A program made the translations under genes and the position numbers. A stretch of DNA of 64,000 bases from the NCBI RefSeq assembly GCF_001677475.2, contig NZ_CP015229.1. One strand, given 5' to 3'. This document shows, in pieces, positions 5,454-7,240 of the stretch; positions within the stretch are counted from its first letter, which is position 1; the number at the start of each line of letters is the position of its first letter. Under the pieces are notes generated by a model. The model was not told where the DNA came from and made no database searches. It was given only the letters and a program-made list of their open reading frames with translations. This DNA comes from Escherichia coli (GTDB lineage: Bacteria; Pseudomonadota; Gammaproteobacteria; Enterobacterales; Enterobacteriaceae).

Positions 5454-5726
5454 TTATTTGATATATGAATCCAGCACCTTCAGAACGACATCCAGATCTT
5501 CTTCACGTTTTAGCTCATCCCCCTGGTGAACGATGTGTTCCGTCAGATGACCTTTAATCACTTCCCGCATCAGACCGTTTACCGCGCCACGGATAGCTGC
5601 AATCTGTTGTAAAACTGCAGCGCATTCGTGCGGCTCGTCGAGCATTTTCTTGAGCGCCACGACCTGGCCCTGAATCTTACTGGCACGCGCTTTCAGTTTC
5701 TGTTTATCACGGATTGTATGAGACAT
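5454..5726 (-). CDS. rcnR: Ni/Co-responsive transcriptional repressor (CsoR/RcnR family)
   Basis: 90-aa ORF recognised as RcnR; divergent from rcnA. Confidence 0.95.
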
Positions 5727-5774
5727 GGCAACACCTGGTTAACAAGAACATGAAAAATCATAGCACTATTAATC

Positions 5775-5809
5775 TACTGGGGGGTAGTATCAGGTACTGG
5801 GGGGGAGTA
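5775..5809. promoter_or_regulatory. two RcnR operator dyads (TACT-G6/7-AGTA) in rcnR-rcnA intergenic region
   Basis: TACTGGGGGGTAGTA at 5775-5789 and TACTGGGGGGGAGTA at 5795-5809; G-tract flanked by TACT/AGTA inverted repeats as described for RcnR operators. Confidence 0.8.
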
Positions 5810-5846
5810 GAATCAGATTGCCGAATTAATACTAAGAATTATTATC

Positions 5847-6683
5847 ATGACCGAATTTACAACTCTTCTTCAGCAAGGAAACGCCTGGTTCTTCATCCCC
5901 AGCGCCATCTTACTTGGTGCGCTTCATGGCCTGGAACCAGGGCACTCAAAAACGATGATGGCGGCGTTTATCATCGCCATCAAAGGCACCATTAAACAGG
6001 CGGTGATGCTCGGACTGGCAGCAACTATTTCGCATACCGCAGTGGTCTGGTTGATTGCCTTTGGCGGGATGGTGATCAGCAAGCGTTTTACTGCTCAATC
6101 AGCAGAACCGTGGCTTCAGTTGATTTCCGCGGTGATCATTATTAGCACCGCGTTCTGGATGTTCTGGCGTACCTGGCGCGGCGAACGCAACTGGCTGGAG
6201 AATATGCACGGGCATGATCATGAGCATCATCACCATCATCACGAACATCATCAAGACCACGAACATCACCACGACCATGGACACCATCACGAACATGGCG
6301 AGTATCAGGATGCCCATGCACGAGCCCATGCCAATGACATTAAACGACGCTTTGATGGTAGAGAGGTCACCAACTGGCAAATTTTGTTATTTGGCTTAAC
6401 CGGTGGCCTTATCCCCTGCCCGGCAGCAATTACCGTGCTGTTGATTTGCATTCAGTTGAAAGCCCTGACACTGGGCGCAACACTGGTCGTCAGTTTCAGC
6501 ATTGGCCTGGCGTTAACGCTGGTCACCGTAGGCGTTGGCGCAGCAATCAGCGTTCAGCAGGTCGCAAAACGCTGGAGCGGATTTAACACTCTCGCTAAAC
6601 GCGCCCCCTATTTTTCCAGTCTGTTGATTGGCTTAGTTGGTGTGTATATGGGCGTACATGGCTTCATGGGCATAATGCGATAA
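5847..6683 (+). CDS. rcnA: nickel/cobalt efflux membrane protein with histidine-rich loop
   Basis: 278-aa ORF; N-terminal TM segments, central HxH/HHHHHH tract (about 6207-6335), recognised as RcnA. Confidence 0.95.
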   Translation: MTEFTTLLQQGNAWFFIPSAILLGALHGLEPGHSKTMMAAFIIAIKGTIKQAVMLGLAATISHTAVVWLIAFGGMVISKRFTAQSAEPWLQLISAVIIISTAFWMFWRTWRGERNWLENMHGHDHEHHHHHHEHHQDHEHHHDHGHHHEHGEYQDAHARAHANDIKRRFDGREVTNWQILLFGLTGGLIPCPAAITVLLICIQLKALTLGATLVVSFSIGLALTLVTVGVGAAISVQQVAKRWSGFNTLAKRAPYFSSLLIGLVGVYMGVHGFMGIMR

Positions 6684-6901: not shown

Positions 6902-7240
6902 ATGACCATTAAAAATAAGATGTTGCTGGGTGCGCTTTTGCTGGTTACCAGTGCCGCCTGGGCCGCACCAGCCACCGCGGGTTCGACCAATACCTCGGGA
7001 ATTTCTAAGTATGAGTTAAGCAGTTTCATTGCTGACTTTAAGCATTTCAAACCAGGCGATACCGTCCCAGAGATGTACCGCACCGATGAGTACAACATTA
7101 AGCAGTGGCAGTTACGTAACCTGCCCGCGCCTGATGCCGGGACGCACTGGACCTATATGGGTGGCGCGTACGTGTTGATCAGCGACACCGACGGTAAAAT
7201 CATTAAAGCCTACGACGGTGAGATTTTTTATCATCGCTAA
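6902..7240 (+). CDS. rcnB: periplasmic Ni/Co homeostasis protein
   Basis: 112-aa product from ATG 6902 (GGAGAG SD upstream) with signal peptide; recognised as RcnB/YohN; the longer ORF from 6722 lacks support. Confidence 0.85.
   Translation: MTIKNKMLLGALLLVTSAAWAAPATAGSTNTSGISKYELSSFIADFKHFKPGDTVPEMYRTDEYNIKQWQLRNLPAPDAGTHWTYMGGAYVLISDTDGKIIKAYDGEIFYHR

Follow-up and report, generated by a model that had tools for sequence, protein, structure and literature searches.

The window, a stretch of 64,000 nucleotides of Escherichia coli DNA (GCF_001677475.2, contig NZ_CP015229.1), contains the divergently oriented genes rcnR and rcnA, followed downstream of rcnA by rcnB and preceded at the 3' end of rcnR by a TPP riboswitch (see Table 1 for coordinates and assignments). 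Nickel/cobalt efflux in E. coli is controlled by the rcnR-rcnA pair, a textbook switch that already serves as a Ni/Co biosensor part. The intergenic gap of 120 bp between the two genes holds both of the operator sites treated below; the earlier sequence-only reading, which had placed them in the rcnR-rcnA divergent promoter, is borne out by their position between the gene of a PF02583 repressor and that of a NicO exporter and by RefSeq, in which the same DNA is annotated as rcnR/rcnA in 5,367 of 5,426 complete E. coli genomes. The gene order of the corresponding K-12 neighbourhood is thiD-thiM-(TPP riboswitch)-rcnR/rcnA-rcnB-yehA.

The repressor encoded in the window is 100% identical to K-12 RcnR and possesses the H-C-H-H metal-ligand fingerprint of the RcnR type (H3, C35, H60 and H64); the window RcnB is also identical to its K-12 counterpart. 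A single difference, located outside of the sites at position 5749 (C in the window, T in K-12), distinguishes the intergenic region from that of K-12; in consequence, experiments performed with K-12 apply directly to the sequence under study. The differing position is the exact start base of rcnR; as the start stays a purine (A to G on the transcribed strand), the change is probably neutral. The His-rich loop of RcnA (window positions 6180-6330, residues ~120-150) deviates from K-12 in length as well as in sequence (278 versus 274 aa for the whole protein), and rcnA is much longer on an IncHI2 plasmid (1,116 nt) and in Ralstonia (1,134 nt); the loop appears to be a hypervariable segment of low complexity.

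Table 1. Features of the rcnR-rcnA locus, with positions in the window (TSS, transcription start site).
Feature	Position	Strand	Basis or remark
TPP riboswitch RF00059	5266-5362	-	71 bits; upstream of thiM-thiD, adjoins rcnR 3' end; K-12 annotated likewise
rcnR, 90-aa CsoR/RcnR-family Ni(II)/Co(II) repressor	5454-5726	-	PF02583, E = 3.5e-21
rcnR transcription start	5749	-	Kim et al. 2012, NC_000913.2 2183841, 11 reads
TGcTATGAT, putative extended -10 of PrcnR	5757-5765	-	sequence upstream of the mapped TSS
RcnR operator site 1 (rcnR-proximal), TACT-GGGGGG-T-AGTA, TACTGGGGGGTAGTA	5775-5789	+	sequence, exact consensus match, K-12 identity
TAGTAT, likely -10 of P2 (putative); also at -35 position of P1 (17-bp spacer)	5785-5790	+	TSS 5799
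Inter-site spacer TCAGG, 5 bp	5790-5794	+	sequence; only first T conserved
RcnR operator site 2 (rcnA-proximal), TACT-GGGGGG-G-AGTA, TACTGGGGGGGAGTA	5795-5809	+	sequence, exact consensus match, K-12 identity
rcnA P2 transcription start, first G of site 2 G-tract	5799	+	Kim et al. 2012, NC_000913.2 2183891, 12 reads
TAGAAT, putative -10 hexamer of rcnA P1	5808-5813	+	overlaps last 2 nt of site 2
rcnA P1 transcription start (main)	5820	+	Kim et al. 2012, NC_000913.2 2183912, 25 reads
rcnA, 278-aa Ni/Co efflux protein, His-rich loop	5847-6683	+	PF03824 NicO, E = 2.4e-70
rcnB, periplasmic accessory protein, downstream of rcnA	6902-7240	+	PF11776 RcnB

The two dyads that had been reported from the letters alone for positions 5775-5809, spaced by 20 bp from centre to centre, are present there: Their centres fall on 5782 and 5802, the start-to-start distance is also 20 bp, and the G strand lies on the plus strand at both, i.e. 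the sites are arranged in tandem and in the same orientation. The accompanying notation TACT-G6/7-AGTA describes the G runs of 6 and 7 correctly but not the architecture of the sites, given that site 1 reads TACT-G6-T-AGTA and both dyads measure 15 bp with a gap of 7 bp between TACT and AGTA. Site 1 has a T and site 2 a G as the seventh central base (the N of the published consensus), which accounts for the G runs of 6 versus 7; the G6/G7 difference is a T/G substitution that alters neither length nor geometry. A search of the 64 kb with TACTGGGGGGNAGTA, allowing up to two mismatches, yielded sites 1 and 2 and no other match (0.14 matches expected by chance; two or more matches in 0 of 100 shuffles). 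Both sites conform to TACT-G6-N-AGTA with an unbroken G/C tract, follow each other in tandem at about two helical turns and occupy the divergent rcnR/rcnA location. We regard it as practically certain that the pair constitutes the tandem operator to which RcnR, a sensor of Ni(II) and Co(II), binds in the divergent rcnR-rcnA control region of E. coli; indeed, it is the published tandem type-1 RcnR operator, which has already been characterised mechanistically on an identical sequence.

According to three publications (PMC3902906, PMC7055735, PMC5146963), the RcnR consensus TACT-G6-N-AGTA occurs in two copies in the E. coli rcnR-rcnA intergenic region. PMC3902906, with reference to Iwig & Chivers 2009 (J Mol Biol 393:514), describes a tandem operator of two type-1 sites in E. 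coli with one RcnR tetramer per site (1:1), contacts of RcnR to the minor groove of the TACT/AGTA repeats, and an A-form character conferred by the unbroken G tract; the tetramers, one per site, are placed on the same DNA face in PMC5146963. In Salmonella, a probe composed of the two sites and the spacer alone was bound by two RcnR tetramers. The apo-protein had a KDNA of 1.5e-7 M; with Ni(II) this value rose to 5.9e-6 M or more and with Co(II) to 1.5e-5 M or more, a weakening by a factor of at least 40 to 100. One common affinity for the two sites was used in fitting these data (PMC5016687). The experimental check suggested together with the sequence-only reading, binding of RcnR to each of the sites, has accordingly been published with one tetramer each, for E. 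coli in the papers named above and for Salmonella in PMC5016687. Binding, stoichiometry and metal response are thus shown in the literature for the identical K-12 sequence and for Salmonella. A literature search for details of RcnR wrapping or supercoiling and for an earlier comparative motif for yohL/yohM returned nothing usable.

The transcription starts published by Kim et al. 2012 (Table S1, PMC3415461) were placed on the window by mapping the upstream strings given there; the 51-nt string of rcnA P1 corresponds exactly to 5770-5820. Computed from these starts, site 1 extends from -45 to -31 of rcnA P1, from -24 to -10 of rcnA P2 and from -40 to -26 of PrcnR, while site 2 extends from -25 to -11 of rcnA P1, from -4 to +11 of rcnA P2 and from -60 to -46 of PrcnR: Site 2 overlaps the core promoter of rcnA P1 and site 1 that of PrcnR. 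The hexamer TAGTAT is composed of the N (T) of site 1, its AGTA repeat and the first base of the spacer. Canonical -35 hexamers were sought for P1, P2 and PrcnR, and none matches well. By its sequence, PrcnR looks like an extended -10 promoter, and the CA on the plus strand (TG on the minus strand) of its extended -10 element is moderately conserved across rcnR-rcnA loci. A consensus promoter scan brought up two candidates, one (TTGCCG/TATTAT) directly next to the rcnA ATG and one inside rcnR; both were rejected, as neither fits the experimental starts.

For Klebsiella pneumoniae, Kim et al. 2012 list a single rcnA start, situated 7 nt after a TAGGAT hexamer that begins at the TA of site 2; a counterpart of P2 is not among the K. 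pneumoniae starts of their Table S1. The P2 start of E. coli (12 reads, one data set, no K. pneumoniae counterpart) is weakly supported. In K. pneumoniae MGH 78578 (rcnA start at 465988, rcnR start at 466077 in the same table), simple arithmetic positions the RcnR sites at about -57 to -43 and further upstream of the rcnR start, outside of the core promoter and unlike the arrangement in E. coli; simple occlusion of PrcnR may therefore not be general, and autoregulation in K. pneumoniae may differ.

From this geometry, we infer repression by promoter occlusion. Without metal, one RcnR tetramer occupies each of the 15-bp TACT-G6-N-AGTA sites, contacting the TACT/AGTA inverted repeats and reading the shape of the G tract. 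The tetramer on site 2 would cover the putative -10 of P1, the main rcnA promoter, as well as the base at which P2 starts. The tetramer on site 1 would cover the -10-like hexamer of P2 and, in addition, the -35 position of P1 together with the -35 region of the rcnR promoter. Since the bound tetramers would cover core promoter elements, transcription of rcnAB and of rcnR would be blocked. Ni(II) or Co(II) weakens the binding of RcnR to DNA and relieves the repression.

To follow the sites across species, one genome per species was scanned with the pattern TACT-G5-N{1,4}-AGTA-N{0,15}-TACT-N7-AGTA, in which the N of site 1 and the centre of site 2 are free. The scan gave 105 matches, of which 103 adjoin homologues of rcnR and/or rcnA in the E. 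coli arrangement; wherever the flank was available in these loci, a minus-strand rcnR lies to the left of the sites and a plus-strand rcnA to their right. The 103 loci belong to 36 genera of the Gamma- and Betaproteobacteria (RcnR identity of 54-100%), and the G strand is the rcnA sense strand in all of them. From centre to centre, the sites are 20 bp apart in 74 loci and 21 bp apart in 24 (together ~95%), the remaining 5 loci ranging from 19.5 to 23 bp; the spacer, with 48 distinct sequences, has a length of 5 nt in 76 loci, 6 nt in 25 and 8 nt in 2. The last base of the centre is T in 103 of 103 loci at site 1 and G in 100 of 103 at site 2. After weighting by genus, a T opens the spacer in 97% and stands at the fourth position past site 2 in 94%; the other flanking positions are near random. 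The latter T is the final base of the putative TAnnnT -10 of P1 and is also found in 58 of 58 metagenome alleles.

As the pattern of the species scan fixed the start of the site 1 G tract, metagenomes were searched with the reverse ascertainment, i.e. with site 2 fixed and the centre of site 1 free at 6-8 nt. Homologues of rcnR and/or rcnA flank 117 of the 120 loci obtained, and these 117 comprise 58 different alleles. In 57 of the 58, the centre of site 1 closes with a T, and the first spacer base is T in 58 of 58. These DNA-pattern scans count tandem sites only. A tblastn search of plasmids retrieved mostly the IncHI2 copy of rcnR and FrmR-like genes, with one informative divergent locus from Ralstonia. 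In the IncHI2 copy (RcnR 92% identical), both sites are exact, including the T and the G, with TATTT as spacer. The Ralstonia locus (RcnR 62% identical) exhibits a single site, TACT-A-G6-AGTA, adjoining rcnA; tandem sites, though common, are thus not present at every such locus. Some metagenome contigs contain, in place of the direct tandem, inverted pairs of the form TACT-C7-AGTA...TACT-G7-AGTA, or of the form C6T...AG6 with a gap of 12 nt. These loci do not lie beside rcnR/rcnA, one of them being located beside a CsoR-like gene of 30% identity, and they represent a different operator architecture for another member of the family.

The N of the published consensus is thus not free but T in the rcnR-proximal and G in the rcnA-proximal site, conserved across 36 genera; this is a small new point. 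Because the T/G difference is so strongly conserved across genera, the two operators are probably not equivalent, as judged from the comparison of sequences. A possible explanation for the conserved N and the non-equivalence of the operators, which we put forward tentatively, lies in a second role of site 1 as a promoter hexamer, either as -10 of P2 or at the -35 position of P1: Together with AGTA, the conserved T's on both sides of the repeat form TAnnnT hexamers at the P2 position and at the -35 position of P1. These T's do not look like a part of the general recognition by RcnR, given that they are specific to site 1 and are mirrored neither at the left half-site nor at site 2.

It seems rather unlikely that the T/G difference instead tunes the binding of RcnR, through an extended TAGTA half-site or through the groove shape of G6 versus G7, such that the operators would differ in intrinsic affinity or in bending, with a graded de-repression as the outcome. 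The sequence-only reading had suggested a difference of this kind in affinity or DNA bending, starting from a slightly inaccurate picture, as the two sites are equally long. The bases themselves (T in 103 of 103 rcnR-proximal and G in 100 of 103 rcnA-proximal sites in 36 genera, T in 57 of 58 alleles with site 1 unconstrained) are as expected for such tuning, and some site 2 variants as well as the single Ralstonia site TACT-A-G6-AGTA mirror TAGTA and hint at half-sites of 5 bp. However, the Salmonella data are adequately fitted by an equal affinity for both sites (PMC5016687), general recognition would predict the T at site 2 or at a mirrored left half-site, and the equally conserved T after site 1 lies outside of the RcnR motif and fits the TAnnnT promoter hexamer. 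We think that the asymmetry is more likely due to overlapping signals for RNA polymerase than to a tuning of RcnR affinity. If site 1 indeed doubles as a promoter hexamer, the operator sequence would be a compromise between recognition by RcnR and by RNA polymerase.

Of the 5,132 E. coli genomes with a match to the 56-bp core (5765-5820), 4,429 show 100% identity to it. The common variants sampled concern the spacer and the flanks and spare the operators, and the rare assemblies that vary within an operator do so at site 2 only, the G6 of site 1 being unchanged in every variant assembly fetched and aligned. At site 2, up to 98 of the 5,132 genomes show G8, many of them from one O121 lineage (several O121:H19 strains), and at least 6 genomes show G6. 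Strain 097H6 has a deletion of 5 bp and strain L3Cip3 a deletion of 3 bp (equivalent 5803-5810), each of which breaks the AGTA half of site 2 and shifts the -10 of P1. The length and deletion variants are possibly real alleles or possibly (homopolymer) assembly errors; if the deletions in 097H6 and L3Cip3 are real, expression of rcnA should differ in these strains.

The G8 and G6 assemblies, together with the Salmonella lineages that have G5, G6 or G7 in site 1, might be taken to indicate a phase-variable tract, in which slipped-strand mispairing at the G7 of site 2 would switch rcnA via promoter spacing or operator geometry. This is very improbable: The G7 is found in ~98% of the E. coli genomes and persists in most of the 36 genera, it is shorter than typical contingency tracts, and many of the G8 records look, by their accession series, like long-read assemblies of one O121 lineage, in which miscalls are to be expected. 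The frequent length heterogeneity among close strains that characterises contingency tracts was not observed, the core including G7 being identical in the large majority of E. coli genomes counted above. The G runs might also act via non-B DNA formed by the rcnA sense strand, either a G-quadruplex-like fold or a cruciform of the TACT/AGTA repeats. The two G6-7 runs on one strand within 31 nt speak in favour of this reading, which was rejected on anatomical grounds and has a negligible probability, as there are only two G runs, the inverted repeats comprise only 4 bp, and experiments have established that protein binds to precisely these sequences.

The operator as such was already known, and the sole addition of the present analysis is the site-specific conservation of its N across genera. 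Engineers and modellers should not treat the sites as interchangeable copies of TACT-G6-N-AGTA, since both the T/G difference and the T that follows site 1 show conservation in 36 genera and coincide with putative promoter hexamers.

Among the known systems, the E. coli K-12 RcnR operator (Iwig & Chivers 2009; Blaha et al. 2011, Biochimie 93:434) agrees with the window in the 35-bp core, the flanking genes and RcnR; the window strain deviates in the C/T difference at the rcnR start and in the size of RcnA (278 versus 274 aa), and nothing functional differs. The rcnRA locus of Salmonella Typhimurium (Osman et al. 2016, PMC5016687) resembles the window in its two G-tract sites with a gap of 5 bp and with T and then G before AGTA, and E. 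coli in the binding of two tetramers and the response to Ni/Co. The oligonucleotide as printed differs by G7-T in site 1 (one G more than in E. coli) and by the spacer TTCTA: The rcnRAPro oligo of Table S1 in PMC5016687 reads TACT-G7-TAGTA-TTCTA-TACT-G7-AGTA and amounts to 36 nt, versus 35 bp in the text of that paper. Site 1 contains G5-T in S. enterica subsp. arizonae and G6-T in subsp. diarizonae; either Salmonella is variable in the number of G's at site 1 or a typographical error has entered the table of PMC5016687.

The more distant relatives share the general design of the operator. FrmR of E. coli at PfrmRAB (Denby et al. 2016, PMC5146963) belongs to the same family as RcnR and likewise binds tandem G/C tracts with AT-rich inverted repeats over the promoter; unlike those of RcnR, its repeats are ATAC/GTAT, its GC tracts comprise 9 bp and its effector is formaldehyde (PMC5146963). 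The FrmR centres are 31 bp apart versus 19 bp for rcnR-A by the counting of that paper (PMC5146963) and 20 bp here; the discrepancy of 19 versus 20 bp for rcnR-A is a matter of counting convention and reflects no difference in sequence. The type-2 CsoR of Streptomyces lividans (Tan et al. 2014, PMC3902906), again of the same family, recognises a GTA-containing dyad around an A-form G/C tract as RcnR does; in contrast to RcnR, its G/C tract is interrupted, the dyad spacing is ~11 bp, the effector is Cu(I), and two tetramers bind to one site on opposite faces of the DNA (PMC3902906).
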